Shown here: one piece after another, positions 1,233 through 18,260 of the stretch
Layout of the letters: the number at the start of each line of letters is the position of its first letter
How positions within the stretch are numbered: position 1 is the first letter of the stretch
From: Candidatus Methylomirabilota bacterium
Lineage (GTDB): Archaea > Thermoproteota > Bathyarchaeia > 40CM-2-53-6
Direction of reading: 5' to 3'
DNA length: 24,000 bases
NCBI GenBank assembly: GCA_035524675.1
Contig: DATKOK010000073.1
Coordinates: 1 to 24,000, forward strand
The notes under the pieces: model-generated
Seen by the model: the letters and a program-made list of their open reading frames with translations, nothing else
Told to the model about the DNA's origin: nothing
The model's database searches: none
Position numbers and translations under genes: made by a program

Positions 1233-2006
1233 ATGTTGACAGGTTCAATCATTTCGAATGCTCTTGAACAGAAGCGCACTGCTCTGCTCGAGCCGGAGGC
1301 AAAGAACATCTGCAGAGCTTACAATCTTCCTGTCCCCGCATTCAAACTCGCCATCAATGTGAACCAGGCAGTTAAGTACGCTGAGAAGATCGGCTTTCCA
1401 GTTGTCATGAAGATCGTCTCTCCAGACATCCTTCACAAGACAGAGGCAGGCGGTGTCATTCTAGGTCTTCACACGAGAAAAGACGTCGAAAATGGGTTTT
1501 CGAAGCTCTTGTCAAACGCTAAAGCGTTCAAGAAGACCGCCAGGATTCATGGCGTGCTAATTGAACGCATGGCCCCGCCTGGACTCGAGGTTATCGTAGG
1601 CGGCATGCGTGACCAGCAATTCGGACCTGTGGTGATGTTCGGCTTGGGCGGAATATTCACACAAGTGCTCGAGGACGTCACTTTTGGTCTCGTCCCGATA
1701 AAGAAATCCGAAGTCCGCGAGATGATCAGAGGAATCAAAGGATACCAAGCGCTCACAGGATTCAGGGGCATGCTTCCCGTCGACGAAGGAGCCATTGCGT
1801 CGACTGTCGTTCAGGTCTCCAAGATCATGAATGAAAATCAACAGATCGGTCAAATAGACCTTAATCCAGTGAGGGCATACAGTCGCGGCTGTTCAGTGGT
1901 AGATGCACGAATCCTGCTTGCATCCGCGCACGGGACCAAGCGCGAGTTGACCAAGAATGATGGCTCCAGTCCAAGAAAAAAAACAAATTGCTCCACCTAC
2001 CGATGA
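1233..2006 (+). CDS. ATP-grasp protein resembling the beta subunit of ADP-forming acetyl/acyl-CoA synthetase (ACD)
   Basis: The layout is typical of ACD-beta / ATP-grasp_5: LLEPEAKNICRAYNLPVP, FPVVMKIVSPDILHKTEAGGV, VLIERMAPPGLEVIVGGMRDQQFGPVVMFGLGG and IDLNPV..VVDARILL. No alpha (CoA-binding) subunit is adjacent. The 3' tail overlaps hoxE by 50 nt. Confidence 0.75.
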   Translation: MLTGSIISNALEQKRTALLEPEAKNICRAYNLPVPAFKLAINVNQAVKYAEKIGFPVVMKIVSPDILHKTEAGGVILGLHTRKDVENGFSKLLSNAKAFKKTARIHGVLIERMAPPGLEVIVGGMRDQQFGPVVMFGLGGIFTQVLEDVTFGLVPIKKSEVREMIRGIKGYQALTGFRGMLPVDEGAIASTVVQVSKIMNENQQIGQIDLNPVRAYSRGCSVVDARILLASAHGTKRELTKNDGSSPRKKTNCSTYR

Positions 2007-2466
2007 CAAAAGGTGGAAGCTCGTCCAGGCGACGATGCGCCGTCACGGGCACGCTCCCAACTCGCTGATTGAAACGCTGCACACCGTGCAAGAAACCTTC
2101 GGTTTCCTAGAAAAGCGAAGCCTGGAATACGTGTCATTAGCCCTGCGTGTTCCCCTGAGTCGCGTTTACGGAGTTGCCACATTCTACCACTTCTTCACAC
2201 TCAAACCCCCAGGTGAACACGTCTGCGTCGTGTGCATGGGCACGGCTTGTTACATCAGGGGAGCCCAGAAAGTGCTTCAAGATATCGAGCAGACAGCAGG
2301 AACCAAACCGGGGGAAACGTCCCCTAACGGTCGCGTATCACTCGTGACTGCACGTTGCCTCGGATCATGTGGCCTTGCACCAAACGCGGTCTTCGACGGC
2401 GAAGTCGTTGGCAAGCTCACTCCAGCCGAAGCGCACAAACGAGTTGAAGGATGGATGAAGAAATGA
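1957..2466 (+). CDS. hoxE: HoxE, NuoE-like [2Fe-2S] diaphorase subunit of bidirectional [NiFe] hydrogenase
   Basis: NuoE/HoxE family features are present: LIETLHTVQETFGFL, and the Cys ligands CVVCMGTAC and CLGSCGLAP. It is followed directly by hoxF. Confidence 0.85.
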   Translation: MMAPVQEKKQIAPPTDDKRWKLVQATMRRHGHAPNSLIETLHTVQETFGFLEKRSLEYVSLALRVPLSRVYGVATFYHFFTLKPPGEHVCVVCMGTACYIRGAQKVLQDIEQTAGTKPGETSPNGRVSLVTARCLGSCGLAPNAVFDGEVVGKLTPAEAHKRVEGWMKK

Positions 2467-4100
2467 ACGGCGAAGATCTTGCCAAAATAATGGACGAAGA
2501 GAAACGGAACAAAAAATCTCAGCCGCACCAAATACACGTCTGTATCGCAGCAGCATGCTTGTCGGCGCATAGCGAAAGTCTAAAGGAAGATTTCGTCAAG
2601 GAAATCAAACGCCGAGGAATGGATCACCAATGCAAGGTGAAAGGTGTAGGATGTCTCGGCCTATGCGCTCAAGCACCACTCGTCTCAGTAGAGAGTGAAG
2701 GAGTACTCTATCACGATGTCACGCCTCAAAATGTCCCGCAAATTATCGACGGCCTCGGAAGGAAACCCGTGAAAGAAATTCAAGCATCACTCGAAGTACC
2801 ATTCTTCAGCCGACAGCATAGGGTTGTGCTTGACAATTGCGGGAAAGTTGATCCAGAACGAATTGAAGATTACATCAGCCTCGGCGGCTATTCAGCCCTA
2901 CTCAAAGCACTAAATGAGATGCGCCCACCAGAAGTAATCGAGCAAGTCACTCGCAGCGGGCTTCGAGGACGAGGCGGGGCAGGATACCCAACAGGACTCA
3001 AGTGGAGTACTGTCTCCAAAGCAGTTGGAACAAGAAAATTCGTAGTATGCAATGCCGACGAAGGTGACCCTGGAGCCTTCATGGATCGTACCATTCTGGC
3101 CAGCGATCCCCACAAAGTTTTGGAGGGCATGGCAATAGCCGCATATGCAGTCGGCGCATCAGAAGGTTACATTTACGTTCGAGCCGAATACCCGTTAGCC
3201 GTCAAACGACTCAGAACTGCAGTTCATCAGGCAGAACGGTTGAATATACTCGGGAAGAATATTCTCGGCACTCAGTTCAACTTCAGCATAGAAATCCGGC
3301 TCGGTGCAGGCGCCTTTGTCTGCGGAGAAGAAACAGCACTTCTCGCTTCAATCGAAGGAAAAAGAGGAACACCCCGTCCTCGACCACCTTACCCTGCCGA
3401 ATCAGGATTATGGAACAATCCCACTTTGCTCAACAATGTCGAGACATACGCTCATGTTCCACGCATAATCGCAGAAGGCGGGGAATGGTACTCGAAACTT
3501 GGCACAGAGAAGAGCAAGGGCACAAAGATGTTTGCACTCGCAGGACGAGTTACAAACACTGGACTAATTGAAGTACCAATGGGAATCACGCTCCGTGAAA
3601 TAATCTTCGATATAGGAGGCATTCCGGAAGGCCATAAATTCAAAGCAGTGCAGACAGGCGGACCATCCGGAGGATGCGTCCCAGAGCAATACCTTGACAC
3701 TCCAGTCGACTACGAGTCCCTAACAAGACTAGGGTCCATCATGGGATCAGGAGGAATGATCGTGATGGACGAAACATCATGCATGGTCGACGTTGCGAAA
3801 TATTTCATGGACTTCTGCAAGAGCGAATCTTGCGGCAAATGTATTCCATGCCGCGTCGGCACAGCCCAAATGCATGACATCCTGACCAAGATTACGAACG
3901 GAACCGCAACCATGAATGATCTCGCAACACTCGAAGAGTTGTGCGACGTCGTTCAAAACACAAGCCTCTGCGGTCTAGGACAGACAGCTCCCAACTCGAT
4001 CCTTAGCACGTTACGTTACTTCCGAGATGAATACCTCGCACATATACAACGCAGAACATGTCCGGCCGGAGTCTGCAAGCTACAGGAGCCGTCCACCTAA
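2451..4100 (+). CDS. hoxF: HoxF, NuoF-like NAD(H)/FMN/[4Fe-4S] diaphorase subunit with N-terminal thioredoxin-like [2Fe-2S] domain
   Basis: Motifs seen: [24 protein letters not shown], and the 4Fe-4S site [18 protein letters not shown]-terminal Cys motifs are CIAAAC and GCLGLC. The start is either ATG 2451 or the in-frame ATG 2463, which forms an ATGA overlap with the hoxE stop. Confidence 0.9.
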
Positions 4101-4819
4101 TGGCCACGGCAGTTCACGTCAAGACGTTCAAGATTGACGGCATAGACGTCAGTGGTCGCGAGAACGAGACCATCCTACAAGTCGCACAGGAGAACGGAGT
4201 CTTCATCCCCACACTCTGCCAAGTGAATGGACTATCCTCAGTCGGGGCTTGCCGATTGTGCTTAGTTGAAATAAAGGGCAGACCAAAACTTTTCCCCGCA
4301 TGCACGCTCCCAACAGAAGAAGGCATAGAAGTCGTAACGCAATCCGAGCGACTAAGCAAGTACCGCCGCATGATTCTTGAACTATTGTTCTCGGAACGCA
4401 ACCATATCTGTGCAGTATGCGTGTCAAACGGACATTGTGATCTCCAGGACTTAGCGCAGAAACTAGGAATGACTCATGTCCGCTTTCCATACCGTCATCC
4501 ACTCATGTCAGTCGATGCTTCACACAAACAATTCATCATCGACCATAACCGCTGCATTCTGTGCACTCGCTGCGTCCGCGTCTGCGATGAAATTGAAGGA
4601 GCTCACACCTGGGACGTCATGGGACGAGGCATAGACAACCGAGTAATCGTCGACCTAGACCAGCCCTGGGGAACATCAGAAACCTGCACAAATTGTGGCA
4701 AATGCGTACAAGTCTGCCCCACCGGCGCGCTCTTTGAAAAAGGAAACGCAGTTGGAGAAATGAACAAGAGAAGACAGTTCCTGAGTTACCTAACTGTGAT
4801 GCGAGGGGCTGGAACCTGA
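4100..4819 (+). CDS. hoxU: HoxU, NuoG-N-terminal-like Fe-S subunit ([2Fe-2S] plus [4Fe-4S] clusters)
   Basis: The sequence begins [17 protein letters not shown]. Cluster motifs are [19 protein letters not shown] (2Fe-2S), [23 protein letters not shown] and [13 protein letters not shown] prefer ATG 4100 (TAATG overlap with the hoxF stop) over the tracked 4058 start. Confidence 0.9.
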
Positions 4820-5346
4820 AAGCAAGAATCGCGACCGTCTGGCTGGACGGATGTTCCGGATGTCACATGTCCCTCCTTGACATGGACCAACGCCTGCTTG
4901 AACTAGCCGACAAGATTGATCTGGTCTATAGCCCTCTTGTGGATGCAAAAGAGTTCCCCGAGAATGTAGACGTAACGCTCGTCGAAGGATCAATAAGCAA
5001 TGAAGAGAACCTGGAACAGATTCGACGGATACGCGAGAGAACCAAGATTCTAGTCTCACTAGGCGATTGTGCAGTAACGGGAAACGTCCCATCAATGCGA
5101 AACGAATTCCCCGTAGATCAAGTAATCGACGCCGCATACCATATGCACAACAGAACGGATACAAAGTTTCAGTTCGAGGGAGTACCCAAACTCCTGAAGA
5201 CAGTCACACCCGTTCACTCGGCAGTGAAGGTCGACCTCGTCGTGCCTGGGTGTCCACCCTCGGCAGACGTCATCCACTATACCATAACAGAACTCCTGGA
5301 AGGCAGAATCCCAGACCTAACCACACGGACCCGCTTCGGCAAATAA
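4816..5346 (+). CDS. hoxY: HoxY, [NiFe] hydrogenase small subunit (proximal cluster only), apparent CTG start
   Basis: The in-frame sequence upstream of the tracked ATG 4867 reads [17 protein letters not shown]. That is the conserved small-subunit N-terminus and carries two proximal-cluster Cys. Later ligands are GDCAVTG and VPGCPP. There is no ATG/GTG/TTG between the upstream stop (4735-4737) and 4867. CTG 4816 overlaps the hoxU TGA (CTGA), and GAGGGG lies 7 nt upstream. Confidence 0.85.
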
Positions 5347-5358
5347 CGGTGAGAAAGA

Positions 5359-6780
5359 ATGAGAACAATCGAGATCAAGCCTGTAACTCGCATAGAGGGA
5401 CATGCAAGAATCACAATTGAACTCGACGAAGAGGGAAGCGTACACGACGCGCACTTCCATATCACTCAGTTCCGAGGGTTTGAAAAGTTCTGTGAAGGTC
5501 GCCCATTCTATGAAATGCCCTCACTAATGGCCCGAATATGTGGCATCTGCACGATCAGCCACATGCTTGCTTCAGCAAAAGCTTGCGAAGCCTTAATGGC
5601 CGTACGAGTGCCAGAGACAGCAATCAAACTACGCCGTGTCGCCAACTTAGCGCAGATGATCCAGTCGCATGCCCTAAGCTTCTTCTACCTTGCTGCACCA
5701 GACCTACTCCTCGGAATGGACGCAGACCCGGCCCAACGTAACATATACGGGCTCATGAAAACGAACCCACAATTTGTACGCGACGGCGTCCGACTTCGAC
5801 AATTCGGGCAAGAGATAATTGAGCTCCTCGCTGGCAAACGATTACACCCGACATGGATAGTTCCCGGAGGAGTAAACTCACCTCTCACAGTTGAGACCAG
5901 AGACAAAATCCTCGCATCAATTCCTGAAGCATTAGGCATCATACAGCGCACGTTGAACTGGTACAAGACCGTCCTTGACAATTACCGCGAAGAGATTCGC
6001 ACCTTCGCAACCTTCCCGTCCCTATTCATGGGTCTCGTAACTCCGACAGGAGAGCTGGAACATTACCATGGACGCCTGAGAGTCGTTGATCCAACCGGAA
6101 CTATCGTAGAGGACCAAATCGACCCCAAGCTATATCCAAGCTACATCGAGGAAGAAGTACTACCATACTCATATCTCAAGGCCCCCTACTACAAATCGCG
6201 CGGATACCCAGAAGGAATCTACCGCGTAGGACCACTTGCACGCCTCAACATAATAGACCGCACTGGGACACCAAGAGCAGAGGAAGAATGGGTCGAGTAC
6301 AGAGCGCTCAGAAGACAGGCTAACCTAAGCAACTTTCACAACCACTATGCCAGATTGATCGAAATCCTCTACTCCATCGAACGAATTGAACAACACCTAA
6401 ACGACCCTGAAATTACAAGCAGTCACGTCCGAGCATACGCCTCACCTAACAATAACGAAGGCATAGGCGTCACAGAAGCCCCTCGAGGAACATTGATACA
6501 CCATTACAAAATCAACGAAGATGGGCTAGTAAACTGGGCGAACCTCATAGTCGCGACCGGCCACAATAACCTCGCAATGAATCGTGGCGTACTACAAGTC
6601 GCAAAACATTTCGTGACAGGAAACCATCTGCAGGAAGGCATCCTAAACCGCGTGGAAGCAGTTATCAGAACCTTCGACCCCTGTCTAAGTTGCTCAACCC
6701 ACGCAATAGGCCAGATGCCACTTGACATACGTCTCATGGATGCTCAAGGTCGCACGCTAGACCGTCTGAAACGAGATTGA
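5359..6780 (+). CDS. hoxH: HoxH, [NiFe] hydrogenase large (catalytic) subunit
   Basis: RIEGH and RICGICTISH provide the N-terminal CxxC ligands. The C-terminal DPCLSCSTH is followed by a 25-aa tail, which is the expected protease substrate. The gene is partnered with hoxEFUY, the group 3d architecture. Confidence 0.95.
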   Translation: MRTIEIKPVTRIEGHARITIELDEEGSVHDAHFHITQFRGFEKFCEGRPFYEMPSLMARICGICTISHMLASAKACEALMAVRVPETAIKLRRVANLAQMIQSHALSFFYLAAPDLLLGMDADPAQRNIYGLMKTNPQFVRDGVRLRQFGQEIIELLAGKRLHPTWIVPGGVNSPLTVETRDKILASIPEALGIIQRTLNWYKTVLDNYREEIRTFATFPSLFMGLVTPTGELEHYHGRLRVVDPTGTIVEDQIDPKLYPSYIEEEVLPYSYLKAPYYKSRGYPEGIYRVGPLARLNIIDRTGTPRAEEEWVEYRALRRQANLSNFHNHYARLIEILYSIERIEQHLNDPEITSSHVRAYASPNNNEGIGVTEAPRGTLIHHYKINEDGLVNWANLIVATGHNNLAMNRGVLQVAKHFVTGNHLQEGILNRVEAVIRTFDPCLSCSTHAIGQMPLDIRLMDAQGRTLDRLKRD

Positions 6781-7226
6781 ATCAAGTGCACTCCGTGTTA
6801 GTGATAGGATACGGAAATAGTCTACGCGGAGACGACGGAATCGGCATAGCAGCCGCCGAACAGCTCCGTGACACCATACAAAACAGCCGAGTAAGAATCA
6901 TTACATGTCAACAATTAACCCCAGAACTCGCAAACGAGATGAGCAAAGTCGACCGCGTAATAATGATTGACGCCGCCAAAGGAGAAACACCGGGTCAAGT
7001 CACAGTCACGAAAATCGAAACAAGCAATGACTCAGCGACATTCACACATGAACTTCAACCATCCACACTGCTAGCATGCTCACAAGAACTCTACGGGAAA
7101 AATCCCGCAACATACCTTGTATCTGTAACAGGATACTCATTCGACTTTAGTGACGAATTATCGGATGGCGTAACGCTGATCATGCCTCAAGTTCTCACGC
7201 GAATTCGCGAACTCATAGATCAATAA
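6777..7226 (+). CDS. hoxW: HoxW-type hydrogenase maturation endopeptidase
   Basis: The N-terminal VLVIGYGNSLRGDDGIG motif matches HoxW/HybD/HycI proteases. The gene sits immediately 3' of hoxH. The start is TTG 6777 (TTGA overlap with the hoxH stop) or the in-frame GTG 6786. Confidence 0.85.
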   Translation: MNQVHSVLVIGYGNSLRGDDGIGIAAAEQLRDTIQNSRVRIITCQQLTPELANEMSKVDRVIMIDAAKGETPGQVTVTKIETSNDSATFTHELQPSTLLACSQELYGKNPATYLVSVTGYSFDFSDELSDGVTLIMPQVLTRIRELIDQ

Positions 7227-13733: not shown

Positions 13734-14819
13734 GTGGTGAGCCTCTTGAAGCGGGAACAGGTACTACGACGTCCGACCAAACCGATCGAGATTAATCCTG
13801 AAAAATCGATCAGTGAATTAGTCCGCGACATGTCCCTGACAGGATTTCAGGGACGCAAACTCGGGGAGGCCGCGGAAGTGTGGACAACGATGCTGAAGAA
13901 ACGGGAGATGGTCATCTGGTTGGGCTTGGCGGGGGCAATGGTTCCTGCTGGAATGCGGTCACTCGTAACCTACCTGATTCGGCGCAGGATGATCGACGTC
14001 CTCGTCACAACCGGCGCGACACTATACCACGATGCTTACGAGACCATAGGTGGTAAACATTGGCAGGGCACTGACCAGATAGACAATGTGATGCTGCGAA
14101 AACATCGCATCGATCGTGTCTACGATGTATACGCGGACGAGAGAAAATTCTATCGACTTGACGTTATGATCGAGAAGGAATTCGCGTCTCGCCTACAACC
14201 TGGCAGACCATACTCATCTCGTGAAGTACTATACGAGTTTGGAAAATGGATATCAGAAATGTCGCGTGACCGCGACGGAATCTGCGTAGCAGCCTACGAG
14301 TCAGGCGTTCCAGTGTTCGTTCCATCATTCTGTGATAGCGGAATGGGCTTCTCGCTGATGTTCTCAAACAGACGTAGAAAGCGACATGTGATAGTTGACC
14401 ACATGAGAGATGTGGACGAAAGTTCCAAAATCACCGAAAAATCAAGCCACACTTCTGTCATAGTCGTTGGCGGCGGTGTACCGAAGAATTTCATACAGCA
14501 GACAGCAGTGATCGCCAGCTACCAAACACGACATGATCGAACTCACGACTTCGCCATCCAGTTCACAACAGATGTCCCACAATGGGGAGGCTTGAGCGGC
14601 TCAACGTTCGAAGAAGCGCAAAGTTGGGGAAAGTACAACCCACACGCGAAGATGGTTCAATGCTTCACGGACGCTACTATCGCACTGCCCGTGGTTGCAC
14701 ACGCCCTGAGTCAGCGGTTCAAACGATTCAGACGAAACGTACCTAGATTTGACTGGAGCGATCATCACAATAATCTGAAAATTAGCTTCCAACGGACCCG
14801 GCTGCCCGACAAGGTCTAG
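13734..14819 (+). CDS. dys: Deoxyhypusine synthase
   Basis: Family motifs: GFQGRKLGEAAEVW, LVTTGATLYHD, VIVVGGGVPKNF and QWGGLSGSTFEEAQSWGK. Confidence 0.9.
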   Translation: MVSLLKREQVLRRPTKPIEINPEKSISELVRDMSLTGFQGRKLGEAAEVWTTMLKKREMVIWLGLAGAMVPAGMRSLVTYLIRRRMIDVLVTTGATLYHDAYETIGGKHWQGTDQIDNVMLRKHRIDRVYDVYADERKFYRLDVMIEKEFASRLQPGRPYSSREVLYEFGKWISEMSRDRDGICVAAYESGVPVFVPSFCDSGMGFSLMFSNRRRKRHVIVDHMRDVDESSKITEKSSHTSVIVVGGGVPKNFIQQTAVIASYQTRHDRTHDFAIQFTTDVPQWGGLSGSTFEEAQSWGKYNPHAKMVQCFTDATIALPVVAHALSQRFKRFRRNVPRFDWSDHHNNLKISFQRTRLPDKV

Positions 14820-15085
14820 CCATATTTGTAGGAAATTCCGAAGCCACCCTTCGGATTCTTCCATCCAATGTCATAGCACGCAATCCTGCAGGCTCCGCAC
14901 TCAACGCACGCGTCGTACGTGATCGTGATCTTATTCTCCTCCCACTTGAAAACGTCCGTCGGGCACACTCTGATACACCTCAAGTCAAACGGACACTTTA
15001 GACACATCGTTGGGTCCTTAATCCACAAATGCGAGTCTTCATCAACCTTGTATCGATTACGATACAGCTTGTCCTCTATAGCCAT
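14816..15085 (-). CDS. fixX: FixX, ferredoxin-like protein of the FixABCX/ETF-quinone oxidoreductase system
   Basis: The sequence is MAIEDKLYRNRYKVDEDSHLWIKD..CLKCPFDLRCIRVCP..CVECGACRIAC. I prefer ATG 15085, 11 nt after the fixC stop. The tracked GTG 15115 is an alternative that overlaps fixC by 19 nt. Confidence 0.85.
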   Translation of the reverse strand: MAIEDKLYRNRYKVDEDSHLWIKDPTMCLKCPFDLRCIRVCPTDVFKWEENKITITYDACVECGACRIACYDIGWKNPKGGFGISYKYG

Positions 15086-15096
15086 GACACGTTGAC

Positions 15097-16377
15097 TCAA
15101 GACATAATCCTCCACAAATGGTAAGCATCCTTCAGAAGGTTAAGCTTCGAACGACGTTTGTAAAGTGCTGACTTCATCTCCTTCACATGCTCCTCTTTTG
15201 TTCCATCATCCACGATGTGCCACCTGTACGCCAGTTCGTTGGCGACTTCTGGATAGAGGGTGAAGAAGTGTTGGTTGGTCGAGAAAAACTTCGGGGCGTC
15301 TTTGTATTTTTTCAGGTCCTTCATGACAAAACTTTCCTCAAGCTTCTGTCGGTAGTCTGCGAGTGTTCGTGATGAGAAATCGCCTTTCTTCTTCGCGTCG
15401 ACTGCTGTGTTCCCCGCCAATGTTCCCGACGTCATAGCTAGGTTCGTGCCCTCCCAGTTTATGGCGTTTACAAGCATAGCAGCGTCTCCAACCACGAGCA
15501 TACCGTCCGTGTGGATCTTTGAGACGTAGTCATACCCTCCTTCCGGGATTAGATGAGCTGAATACTCTTTCAGCTCTCCATCTTGAACCAGCGGCGCTAT
15601 CGAAGGATGATTCTTGAATTGCTCGAAGAGAACGTGAGGGCGTTCCCCGCTCTTGTCAAGGTCGCTTAGGCTAATTCCGATTCCTAGCGATATCGTGTCG
15701 CGATTAGTGTACATGAAACCTGCGTGCATTCCACTTCCCCAGCCAACTAGCATGGCTGCCACGCCTTCATCGGGACCAAGGTTGAATCGTTCCTCGATTC
15801 GCTGGCGGGGCAGAGCGATCACCTCTTTCACGGCTAGTACGACTGATTCGGATGGTGATTCCTCACGTAGCCCGGCATGCTTTGCCAGCATCGAATTGAC
15901 TCCGTCTGCAGCGATAACGACGTCGCTAAGCACATCGCCACGGTCAGTCCTTACGCCAACAATTTTGCCCTTCTCCTTTATCACATCCTCAACCGTGGTT
16001 CTGTTCAGTAATACTGCTCCCGCGTCCTCAGCGAGTTTAGCGAACCAAGGGTCGAATTTCGCTCGATGAACGGTGAATGCGTTGAATGTTTTGTTGAATC
16101 GCTGATTTTTATGGCTTAGAAGTACGTGTGATTCTTTCGTTAAAAACCAGTATTGGTACTCGACAACATGCCTCTCGATTGGCGCAGTCTTCCAGAATTC
16201 AGGTGCGAATTGCTCGGTATGGCGTCTGAATATGACTCCTCCAAACATGTTCTTGGAGCCGGGTTTCTCTCCCTTCTCGAGGACAAGGACATTCAGGCCA
16301 GCCTTTGCCATGGTATATGCTGCGGAGGCGCCAGCAGGTCCCGCCCCAACGACCACCGAATCGAACTTCTCCGTCAT
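15097..16377 (-). CDS. fixC: FixC, FAD-dependent ETF:quinone oxidoreductase-like flavoprotein
   Basis: The N-terminal dinucleotide fold is DSVVVGAGPAGASAAYTMAKAGLNVLVLEKG. The ~430-aa length and the position between etf and fixX fit FixC. Its ATG forms an ATGA overlap with the etfBA stop. Confidence 0.9.
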   Translation of the reverse strand: MTEKFDSVVVGAGPAGASAAYTMAKAGLNVLVLEKGEKPGSKNMFGGVIFRRHTEQFAPEFWKTAPIERHVVEYQYWFLTKESHVLLSHKNQRFNKTFNAFTVHRAKFDPWFAKLAEDAGAVLLNRTTVEDVIKEKGKIVGVRTDRGDVLSDVVIAADGVNSMLAKHAGLREESPSESVVLAVKEVIALPRQRIEERFNLGPDEGVAAMLVGWGSGMHAGFMYTNRDTISLGIGISLSDLDKSGERPHVLFEQFKNHPSIAPLVQDGELKEYSAHLIPEGGYDYVSKIHTDGMLVVGDAAMLVNAINWEGTNLAMTSGTLAGNTAVDAKKKGDFSSRTLADYRQKLEESFVMKDLKKYKDAPKFFSTNQHFFTLYPEVANELAYRWHIVDDGTKEEHVKEMKSALYKRRSKLNLLKDAYHLWRIMS

Positions 16378-18260
16378 GATTTCAGCTCTGCTGGTCGAGT
16401 CTTTTCCAACTCTTGGATTAAAGCCGGAACTACCTTGAAGAGGTCGCCGACGACGCCGAAGTCAGCCATCTTGAAAATTGGCGCGTTTGCATCGCGGTTT
16501 ATCGCGGCGATGTAATCTACATTCATTATGCCGACGATGTGTTGTATGGCGCCTGATATGCCTGCTGCAATGTAGATTCTAGGCCTAACGGTTACTCCCG
16601 TCTGACCTACTTGATGGTCGTAGCTGATCCAGCCTGCTCGCACTGCAGCCCGTGATGCGCCCACTTGGCCATGCAGCGCTTTCGCGAGTTCTTCAATCAG
16701 ACCGAAATTACTTGCCGCTCCTAGTCCCCTCCCGCCTGAGACAATGACTTGAGCGTCCTCAAGTCTTACTCCCACCTTTTCGATGGGAACGAAGTCTAGG
16801 ACTTCTGTGTTGAAATCCTCGGGAGTCAGCGACACGTCGACTTTGATTACTTCGCCGCTTCTCGCCGGGTCAGGGGTAAGACTCTTCATGACACGTGGAC
16901 GCACGCTCACCATGGTGGGTCTATGCTTCGGGCAGATTATAGTGGACATGAGGTTCCCACCATAGTCCGGTCTGGTTCCCATGAAGGTGCCAGTTTCAAT
17001 GTCGACGTCGAGAGCCGTGCAGTCGGCAATCAGCCCAGTTCCGATGAGTGTTGCGGCTGATCCTGCCAGGTCCCTTCCTCTAATCGTTCCACCTAGCAAG
17101 AGTGCTTCAGGCTTGAATTCCCTAACGGCCTGAGTGAGTGCGATAGCGTATGGTTGAGTGCGATACTCCTCCAGTCCGGCGTCTTCTACGAGGTAGACCT
17201 TATCCGCCCCATGAGCGAACGCGTCTTTGGTGAGGTGTGAGACGTTGTTGCCAATCGCAACCGCGGCCAATCTAGTGCCATATGTCTTCGCCAGACGTTT
17301 TCCTTCTCCTAACAGTTCCCATGAGACTTGACCAACCTTCCCATGGAGGTGCTCTATCCACACCCAAACGTCTCCGAAACGCGAGGAATTTTCAGAGTAC
17401 GCCGGTTCCGAAGTCTCCGCTTCTTTCCCATCAGTTCTTGCTGGGGCGAATGCGCCTACAGTTATTAGTTTGTGAAGTAGCCATTTTGCTGCTTGGTGAG
17501 CATCGTCACTGCCATTGAAGAGTTCGCCTTGTTTCCTGCCCGGCGGTGGGAACACCTTCTTTACGATAGTCGGGGACCCCTTCAGTCCTAGCTTGTTTGA
17601 TTCCGCGCCTATCGTGTTCTTATCCCAAACCTCGATCTTGGTTCGCTTTGCCTTCAGCATCCCATCGATCGTATACTTTCGCGGTTTGTTTGCCACTTCA
17701 GTAATAGTAAGAACCGCCGGAAGCTTCGCCTTTACCGTCTCGACTCCATCGTCAAATCGATGTTTCGCAACGATGGTTCTGAGGTCCGGATCGACGGTGA
17801 CAATTTCAGTCACGTTCGAGATTATGGGAATGCCAAATCTGACTGCCAATCCAGGCGGAACTTGCCCAGTCTCTCCATCAATCGCAACCCTGCCCGTCAA
17901 GATCAAGTCAAACGGCTTCCTCTCCGCAACCGTTGTTAACGTCCGCCACAGAGTGTATGACGTGGCAAGAGTGTCCGCGCCAGCCATCTCCCTATCCGAG
18001 ACCATAAACGCGTCATCAGCACCCATCGCGAGTGCTTCACGTAATCCCTCCTGGGCTTGAAGCGGCCCCATCGATACCGCGCTTACAGTTCCGCCATGCT
18101 TCTCCTTGATTCGAATTCCCTCTTCTACTGCGTTGAGGCAGCAAGGGTTGACGATAGAGGGAACCCCTTCCCTAATCAGGTTCAGCGTTATGGGGTCGAA
18201 TCGGATGTCTGTAGCGTCCGGGACATGCTTCACGCAAACCACTGTGTGCAACTGATTCAA
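16374..18260 (-). CDS. etfBA: Fused electron-transfer flavoprotein: EtfB (FixA)-like N-terminal half plus EtfA (FixB)-like C-terminal half in one 628-aa ORF
   Basis: Residues ~1-270 look like EtfB: VVCVKHVPD and AIDGETGQVPPGLA. Residues ~297-628 look like EtfA: VWVWIEH.., GGRGL, and PRIYIAAGISGAIQHIVGI..IAAINRDANAPIF. A low-complexity linker (PARTDGKEAETSEPAYSENSS) joins them. The frame is continuous with no internal stop. The start is TTG 18260 or the nearby in-frame TTG/GTG. Confidence 0.9.
   Translation of the reverse strand: MNQLHTVVCVKHVPDATDIRFDPITLNLIREGVPSIVNPCCLNAVEEGIRIKEKHGGTVSAVSMGPLQAQEGLREALAMGADDAFMVSDREMAGADTLATSYTLWRTLTTVAERKPFDLILTGRVAIDGETGQVPPGLAVRFGIPIISNVTEIVTVDPDLRTIVAKHRFDDGVETVKAKLPAVLTITEVANKPRKYTIDGMLKAKRTKIEVWDKNTIGAESNKLGLKGSPTIVKKVFPPPGRKQGELFNGSDDAHQAAKWLLHKLITVGAFAPARTDGKEAETSEPAYSENSSRFGDVWVWIEHLHGKVGQVSWELLGEGKRLAKTYGTRLAAVAIGNNVSHLTKDAFAHGADKVYLVEDAGLEEYRTQPYAIALTQAVREFKPEALLLGGTIRGRDLAGSAATLIGTGLIADCTALDVDIETGTFMGTRPDYGGNLMSTIICPKHRPTMVSVRPRVMKSLTPDPARSGEVIKVDVSLTPEDFNTEVLDFVPIEKVGVRLEDAQVIVSGGRGLGAASNFGLIEELAKALHGQVGASRAAVRAGWISYDHQVGQTGVTVRPRIYIAAGISGAIQHIVGIMNVDYIAAINRDANAPIFKMADFGVVGDLFKVVPALIQELEKTRPAELKS

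Follow-up and report, generated by a model that had tools for sequence, protein, structure and literature searches.

A chromosomal hoxEFUYH-hoxW operon for a predicted group 3d [NiFe]-hydrogenase in Bathyarchaeia, most likely acquired from a bacterium

A hoxEFUYH-hoxW operon in a Bathyarchaeia genome

Positions 1957-7226 of the DNA analysed here very probably constitute a chromosomal Bathyarchaeia hoxEFUYH-hoxW operon for a soluble group 3d [NiFe]-hydrogenase, with a bacterium as its most likely source. The whole stretch, 24,000 nucleotides (nt) in length, is referred to as the window. It is contig C73 of the host metagenome-assembled genome (MAG) G000, which comprises 1.85 Mb in 180 contigs and is 93.6% complete, with an estimated contamination of 5.3%. 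G numbers denote the genomes of relatives (with G000 for the host MAG) and L numbers the loci that were compared. The six hox genes lie on the plus strand, contain no internal stops, and overlap or are separated by at most 12 nt. They are listed below, followed by the gene upstream.

hoxE, 1957..2466, plus strand: 169 residues; NuoE-like [2Fe-2S] diaphorase subunit; NCBIfam equivalog NF005747, 240.9 bits (cut-off 224)
hoxF, 2451..4100, plus strand: 549 residues; NuoF-like subunit binding flavin mononucleotide (FMN) and NAD(H); Pfam Complex1_51K, NADH_4Fe-4S and 2Fe-2S_thioredx
hoxU, 4058..4819 (longest open reading frame, 253 residues), plus strand: short NuoG-like subunit with one 2Fe-2S and three 4Fe-4S clusters; equivalog NF005745, 402.9 bits (cut-off 333), the match beginning at residue 19
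hoxY, 4816..5346, plus strand: 176 residues; minimal small subunit; Pfam Oxidored_q6; CTG start
hoxH, 5359..6780, plus strand: 473 residues; [NiFe] large subunit; NiFeSe_Hases; Pfam PF27537 (HoxH) in public records
hoxW, 6777..7226, plus strand: 149 residues; maturation endopeptidase; TTG start overlapping the hoxH stop; TIGR00072, 95.6 bits (cut-off 47.45)
acdB-like gene, 1233..2006, plus strand: beta subunit of an ADP-forming acyl-CoA synthetase; Pfam PF13549 (ATP-grasp_5), 258.9 bits; its 3' end overlaps hoxE by 50 nt

A first-pass annotation, made from the letters of the window, had described five structural subunits and their endopeptidase as present, intact and tightly coupled. All six genes are there and the coupling is as described. 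The word intact needs qualification, as hoxY starts with CTG and hypD, hypE and hypF were not found in the host genome (see below). At the position of hoxW, bacteria and other species of the genus also have an ortholog. For hoxU, the true start is probably ATG 4100, which overlaps the hoxF stop by 1 nt and yields 239 residues; three public assemblies call a protein of this length.

The start of hoxY required closer inspection. The small-subunit frame is open from 4738, with no ATG, GTG or TTG upstream of ATG 4867. That ATG lies downstream of the CSGC motif, so that a start there would lose these two proximal-cluster ligands. At the place where the window reads CTGAAA, other species of the genus read ATGAAA, whose ATGA overlaps the hoxU stop. 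Given this correspondence and the lack of any other start before CSGC, hoxY must run from the CTG at 4816 to 5346. The CTG overlaps the TGA stop of hoxU (CTGA), and the A-to-C change at this position is synonymous in the hoxU frame. The nearest other species, at 86% nucleotide identity, has ATG. CTG is an accepted, though weak, start codon in translation table 11. It is no assembly error here, since the same C is found in three independent assemblies, which come from different samples and match the window at 99.6-99.7% identity.

Assignment to group 3d

The assignment to group 3d on an archaeal chromosome, proposed in the first-pass annotation, is upheld by domain content, equivalog hidden Markov models (HMMs), the large-subunit motifs and tree position. 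HoxH carries both motifs of group 3d large subunits, RxCGxC (L1) and DPCxxCxxH (L2), as RICGICTISH at residues 59-68 and DPCLSCSTH at residues 440-448, with C61, C64, C442 and C445 as ligands. An alignment of 14 sequences that includes bacterial HoxH shows no variation in either motif. Past H448, the protein continues for 25 residues, a cleavable C-terminal extension of the kind that accompanies an endopeptidase such as HoxW.

The diaphorase of group 3d enzymes is encoded directly beside the hydrogenase, with HoxE and HoxU scoring above the equivalog cut-offs and the HoxF domains present. HoxF has a thioredoxin-like 2Fe-2S domain at the N-terminus in addition to the Nuo51 FMN domain, and no C-terminal ferredoxin domain. 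It scores 499 bits on the NuoF model TIGR01959, below the NuoF cut-off, as expected for HoxF. Started at CTG 4816, HoxY is a minimal small subunit (such subunits have ~180 residues, and their only cluster-binding Cys are the four of the proximal cluster) and carries CSGC, GDC and GCPP. HoxE contains CMGTAC and CLGSC, and the expected Cys motifs are legible in the translations of HoxE, HoxF, HoxU and HoxY alike, bearing out the earlier statement that cofactor ligands can be identified in every subunit. In trees of HoxH and of concatenated HoxF, HoxU, HoxY and HoxH (FUYH), the window enzyme groups with those of cyanobacteria and Thiocapsa, and the 3b-like and 3c-like paralogues of its relatives fall in the outgroup.

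Chromosomal context

The archaeal flanks noted in the first-pass annotation (S17e, dys, tgtA, Fap7) were confirmed. We identified ribosomal protein S17e, deoxyhypusine synthase, an archaeal tRNA-guanine transglycosylase, an Lsm plus Lsm_C protein, a Fap7-like AAA_18 protein, and a fused electron transfer flavoprotein (ETF) beta-alpha with FixCX. The order HAD-acdB-hoxEFUYHW-glyoxalase-ubiE...dhs-fixXC-etfBA-S17e is the same in G002, G003 and G007 and partly kept in G008. The gene order around the operon is also kept in a JGI contig from another strain. The acdB-hoxE overlap recurs in all four of these genomes, and the left junction is also present in the JGI contig. Altogether, both junctions (acdB/hoxE and hoxW/glyoxalase) are replicated in MAGs of four other species and in four independent metagenome assemblies.

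The composition of the operon is ordinary for the genome. Among 263 segments of the same size, it ranks at the 83rd percentile for tetranucleotide distance from the genome mean, and its guanine-plus-cytosine (GC) content is 50.4%, against 49.2% for the genome. A chimeric contig, a concern raised in the first-pass annotation, was rejected on the basis of the replicated junctions and this ordinary composition.

Distribution, phylogeny and origin

Close copies of the operon were found in 7 of the 23 species of the genus and in neither of the other two genera of the family. Four species of the genus have a HoxH 88-92% identical to that of the window, and two more have one at 71%; a HoxH of 78% identity bears the name Candidatus Bathyarchaeia. 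Outside the genus, the best matches are bacterial (Acidobacteriota, Chloroflexota, Omnitrophota and others), at 64-71% identity, compared to 47-51% for the hydrogenases of sister families and ~40% for other group 3 paralogues of the genus. All but four of the best 80 loci in species-representative genomes are bacterial, the exceptions named being L020 (Bathyarchaeia, the window's genus), L075 and L097. Bacterial operons from Thiocapsa, cyanobacteria, Chloroflexota and Omnitrophota share the E-F-U-Y-H(-W) order, with 52-73% identity per subunit.

Maximum-likelihood trees were built for HoxH (102 rows) and for concatenated FUYH (1427 columns). In the HoxH tree, the window and the six other species of the genus form one clade, with an SH-aLRT support (Shimodaira-Hasegawa-like approximate likelihood-ratio test) of 99. 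This seven-species archaeal clade is nested in an 86-row clade of bacterial 3d enzymes (SH-aLRT 98). The HoxF tree is congruent, so the archaeal clade falls inside bacterial 3d in both phylogenies that the first-pass annotation had proposed. In the concatenated tree, the window clade lies within a 31-row clade with cyanobacteria and Thiocapsa (SH-aLRT 98). Note the short backbone of the 3d radiation.

In the more distant species G014, G022 and G013, the variable block ends at an aldo/keto reductase gene. The more distant species of the genus keep the block from tatD to the aldo/keto reductase gene and have nothing of the stretch from ubiA to HAD. The hox-bearing block at this site is therefore specific to a five-species subclade. 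The acdB-like loci of the more distant species show no synteny with the window locus.

The first-pass annotation had left two options, lateral acquisition or an under-described archaeal clade. Of these, the former is better supported, by the patchy distribution, the higher identity to bacteria than to sister families and the collinear operons, and is not proven in view of the topology tests given below. On the grounds of the maximum-likelihood topology, distribution, identity and shared architecture, we consider a transfer likely, with bacterium to archaeon as its probable direction.

Related clusters were also observed elsewhere. In sister families of the same order, a longer cluster occurs at L016 (G031:C6, 1074-8602) and at L015, L017, L018 and L019. 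It encodes a 172-residue NuoE-like protein, a 1028-residue NuoF fused to a GltD/Nfn-like Fer4_20 plus Pyr_redox_2 module, a NuoG-like protein of 628 residues that has a domain of molybdopterin type, and then both NiFe subunits, small and large. In the trees, the HoxH-like protein of this cluster branches as the sister of all group 3d sequences. L075 (a Bathyarchaeia JZ-2 MAG) and L097 (a Nitrososphaeria MAG) carry hoxEFUYH with 56-58% identical HoxH and form a clade of their own near the base of group 3d, suggesting at least one further archaeal acquisition or lineage. In two Acidobacteriota MAGs (L021 and L066), two hox-like operons stand in tandem. The first has the short hoxEFUYH form; the second, with a gap of ~1.5-2 kb between the hoxF-like and hoxU-like matches, may be a longer form.

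Selection on the hox genes

We determined the ratio of nonsynonymous to synonymous substitution rates (dN/dS) between the window and three other species, at a dS of about 1-2, where synonymous sites are near saturation. The ratio was 0.02-0.08 for hoxE, 0.02-0.06 for hoxF, hoxU, hoxY and hoxH, and 0.14-0.22 for hoxW. For comparison, the flanking genes gave 0.02-0.03 (dhs and fixC) and 0.16-0.19 (acdB and ubiE). The hox structural genes are under strong purifying selection.

Maturation genes and DUF6390

The first-pass annotation had suggested looking for hyp maturation genes elsewhere in the genome, and half of the set was found. On contig C102 of G000, hypA and hypB lie on one strand and hypC, followed by a DUF6390 gene, lies divergently on the other. 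At C102:705-2938 (L132), hypC is directly upstream of the DUF6390 gene, which encodes 257 residues on the same strand. HypD, a true HypE and HypF were not found in G000 (93.6% complete) by HMM searches or by tblastn with the genes of other species of the genus. A HypE-like match of 132 bits on contig C11 was rejected as a generic AIR-synthase paralogue that is also present in relatives with true HypE. Given the completeness of G000, its incomplete HypABCDEF set is by itself no proof of absence. HypD, HypE and HypF were likewise not found in G002, G003 and G007 or in the near-closed genomes G014, G016, G018 and G010. The latter four encode DUF6390 and, without HypDEF, still encode [NiFe] large subunits.

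Among 41 relatives surveyed, intact hypD, hypE and hypF occur together in G001, G005, G009, G013, G017 and nearly all sister families. DUF6390 is confined to the window's genus, where 15 genomes carry it, and none of these 15 has an intact hypDEF set. In G022, which bears DUF6390, hypD is truncated at the N-terminus and hypE is interrupted by an internal stop; G002 retains a 336-residue HypF stump. Consistent, though sub-threshold, matches to Pfam HupF_HypC (E 2e-4 to 1e-2) come from the C-terminal 100 residues of DUF6390 in three species. BLASTP of DUF6390 against the HypC of G000 gave no match, and we found no mention of DUF6390 in the literature.

These observations raise the possibility, which we regard as doubtful, that the Hox and other [NiFe] enzymes of most of the genus are matured without HypD, HypE and HypF, by an undescribed route involving hypC and DUF6390. 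The idea is based on the position of DUF6390 in the slot usually held by hypD, its weakly HypC-like C-terminus, and the strong purifying selection on hox genes in HypDEF-less genomes. In addition, DUF6390 and intact hypDEF are mutually exclusive in the genus, the only overlap being G022 with its degraded-looking hypD and hypE. This complementarity could reflect a single event, because related genomes are not independent samples. If such a route did exist, the textbook view of HypCDEF as indispensable for the Fe(CN)2CO centre would need revision, and the lineage would offer a compact gene set for testing HypDEF-independent maturation.

Alternative explanations

Several observations weigh against a functional group 3d operon of bacterial origin. 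The best match among solved structures is a bifurcating enzyme and not a plain NAD-reducing one; hoxY lacks a canonical start codon; canonical maturation of the window enzyme cannot be assumed, HypD, HypE and HypF not having been found in G000; and no clean empty site was found, the dhs-side block being kept only up to the aldo/keto reductase gene. Moreover, the approximately unbiased (AU) test did not reject trees in which the window clade is joined to the archaeal L075/L097 pair (p 0.39) or to the sister-family clade (p 0.45 for HoxH, p 0.24 for the concatenated proteins). As these tests are non-significant, nesting within bacteria is favoured and not statistically secured. They leave room for an under-described archaeal branch at the base of group 3d, an old hydrogenase passed on vertically and lost repeatedly instead of being imported from bacteria, and both the fully host-like composition and the presence of a related E-F-U-Y-H cluster in sister families of the order would fit such a history. 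However, the sister-family clusters are only 47-57% identical and differ in architecture (the NuoF-GltD fusion and the long NuoG-like subunit described above), whereas the bacterial operons are collinear with that of the window and, at 58-73%, closer in identity. The nesting among bacteria at SH-aLRT 98, the confinement to 7 of 23 species with no other genus of the family among those searched, and the predominance of bacteria among the best 80 loci make vertical descent unlikely. That the operon is a decaying or repurposed relic from which no active [NiFe] hydrogenase is made appears quite unlikely as well. In favour of a relic, hoxY begins with CTG, and HypD, HypE and HypF were not found in G000, G002 (99% complete), G003 and G007; the HypF stump of G002 and the damaged hypD and hypE of G022 point the same way. 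Yet the low dN/dS of hoxF, hoxU, hoxY and hoxH was obtained among species none of which has HypDEF, every metal ligand is retained, as is the protease, and so are hypA, hypB and hypC. CTG is itself an accepted start, and its overlap with the hoxU stop (CTGA) permits the two genes to be coupled in translation.

The structural match bears on the type of enzyme. HoxH, HoxF and HoxU of the window match best to the electron-bifurcating NiFe-HydABCSL of Acetomicrobium mobile (PDB 7t2r, 7t30), the best PDB matches of HoxH being 7t2r_D and 5xf9_D. Together with the N-terminal 2Fe-2S domain of HoxF, which is also found in Bfu enzymes, this could indicate a Bfu-type enzyme that couples H2 to NAD+ and ferredoxin instead of a simple NAD-linked Hox. 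True Bfu enzymes keep five Fe-S clusters in BfuB, most of which are missing from non-bifurcating homologues (Schut et al., PMC9304861). HoxF aligns to residues 8-537 of the 597-residue 7t2r_B and ends ~60 residues before its end. Only two Cys follow the NADH_4Fe-4S domain, hence the C-terminal cluster domain, and with it the five-cluster arrangement of HydB, is missing. HoxU, at 239-253 residues, aligns only to residues 5-208 of 7t2r_A (692 residues) and is far from the ~690 residues of a HydA/BfuA. HoxE and HoxU, in turn, pass equivalog models of the cyanobacterial bidirectional enzyme. We therefore rejected the Bfu type, which we consider very unlikely, in favour of the plain Hox type, because the HydB C-terminal domain is missing and HoxU is short. 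An assembly or binning chimera of bacterial and archaeal DNA could be suspected from the 180 contigs and 5.3% estimated contamination of the MAG and from the bacterial affinity of the operon's closest relatives outside the genus. With its junctions recurring in four other species and four independent assemblies, including the 50-nt acdB/hoxE overlap, and with unremarkable tetranucleotide composition and GC content, this explanation has a negligible probability. Thus, we retain the reading of 1957-7226 as a chromosomal group 3d Hox operon that most likely came from a bacterium.

Proposed function and neighbouring genes

By analogy with its family, the window enzyme is predicted to be a reversible H2:NAD(P)+ oxidoreductase. 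HoxH, with the Ni-Fe site, and HoxY, with one proximal [4Fe-4S] cluster, would together split or form H2. HoxU and HoxE, through their Fe-S clusters, would relay electrons to the FMN of HoxF, where NAD(P)+ would be reduced or, in the opposite direction, NAD(P)H oxidised. Ferredoxin or flavodoxin may also feed the enzyme, as in cyanobacteria. Once the metal has been inserted, HoxW would cut off the 25-residue C-terminal tail of HoxH. An ancestor of a small subclade of the genus most likely gained the whole operon from a bacterium, and the operon would since have taken on the base composition of the host while being kept under strong purifying selection.

The acdB-like gene is probably co-transcribed with the hox operon. 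As it encodes a subunit of an ATP-yielding acyl-CoA synthetase, its linkage to the operon suggests a redox valve, which might connect the NAD(H) pool with the formation of acetate by fermentation or with the uptake of H2 for the Wood-Ljungdahl pathway. An alpha-type subunit (CoA_binding_2, Succ_CoA_lig) was observed at C102:4030-5586 of G000, ~1 kb from hypA. The two halves of the synthetase are thus placed with the beta subunit (window 1233-2006) beside the hydrogenase genes and the alpha subunit beside the maturation genes.

Further along the window, positions 14816-18260 on the minus strand encode the fused ETF beta-alpha (628 residues), followed by FixC-like and FixX-like genes. This EtfAB-FixCX-type module is complete and its synteny is kept across the genus. 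Rfam and tRNA scans of the window found no RNA genes.

Comparison with known systems

A group 3d Hox operon in Bathyarchaeia is already known as a kind, since 2021. A group 3d hoxEFUYH cluster was described in Bathy-6 Bathyarchaeia, family UBA233, in every case alongside an Fpo-like hydrogenase, Hfo (Loh, Herve and Brune 2021, PMC7886697). Group 3d enzymes are also listed in Bathyarchaeota MAG117 (PMC9534799) and in Brockarchaeota (PMC8065059), and HoxUFE and HoxH genes in a closed Bathy-6 genome (PMC11697101). The first-pass annotation had allowed that the operon might already be common in the host lineage. With the operon documented in three of these reports (PMC7886697, PMC9534799, PMC8065059), its novelty is low, and the annotation stands. 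As an annotation it is routine, adding one more Bathyarchaeia species to the published pattern of 3d Hox plus Fpo-like hydrogenase, which in peat, soil and gut habitats has been linked to acetogenesis, whether H2-dependent or fermentative. It is also a clean, well-replicated case of a complete six-gene redox operon, bacterial in its likely origin, that has become fixed on an archaeal chromosome and that selection maintains. Wider interest attaches only to the HypDEF-less context.

The window operon resembles the Bathy-6 Hox system (PMC7886697) in host class, hoxEFUYH order, subgroup 3d and the co-occurrence of an Fpo-like (Hfo) [NiFe] complex. In G000, contig C104:6028-8603 (L131) carries a HycI-type protease gene followed by NuoB-, NuoC- and NuoD-like genes and is cut by the contig end. 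The NuoD-like protein retains RTCGICSFVH, and this second putative [NiFe] enzyme matches the Hfo of Bathy-6. The window's genus may lie inside or outside UBA233/Bathy-6. Lateral origin, hyp genes and the hoxY start codon are not discussed in the Bathy-6 paper.

Among enzymes of solved structure, the HydABCSL of A. mobile likewise combines a NuoE/F/G-like module with a group 3 NiFe dimer. In contrast to it, the HoxF of the window has no C-terminal cluster domain and its HoxU is a third the length of HydA. Second among the structural relatives of HoxH, at 421 bits, is HoxFUYH of Hydrogenophilus thermoluteolus (PDB 5xf9), an NAD+-reducing soluble hydrogenase whose HoxU, with 242 residues, is short like that of the window, though the 5xf9 chains are further in sequence from the window proteins than those of 7t2r. 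The deposited 5xf9 complex presumably comprises the four subunits HoxFUYH, with no HoxE.

Compared to HoxEFUYH of cyanobacteria and purple sulfur bacteria (Synechocystis and Thiocapsa type), the window system is set apart by its archaeal host, the CTG of hoxY, the junction of the operon with acdB, and the failure to find HypD, HypE and HypF. It shares with these enzymes the subunit order followed by hoxW, 50-63% identity per subunit, matching L1 and L2 motifs and the minimal small subunit, and its HoxE and HoxU pass the equivalog models.

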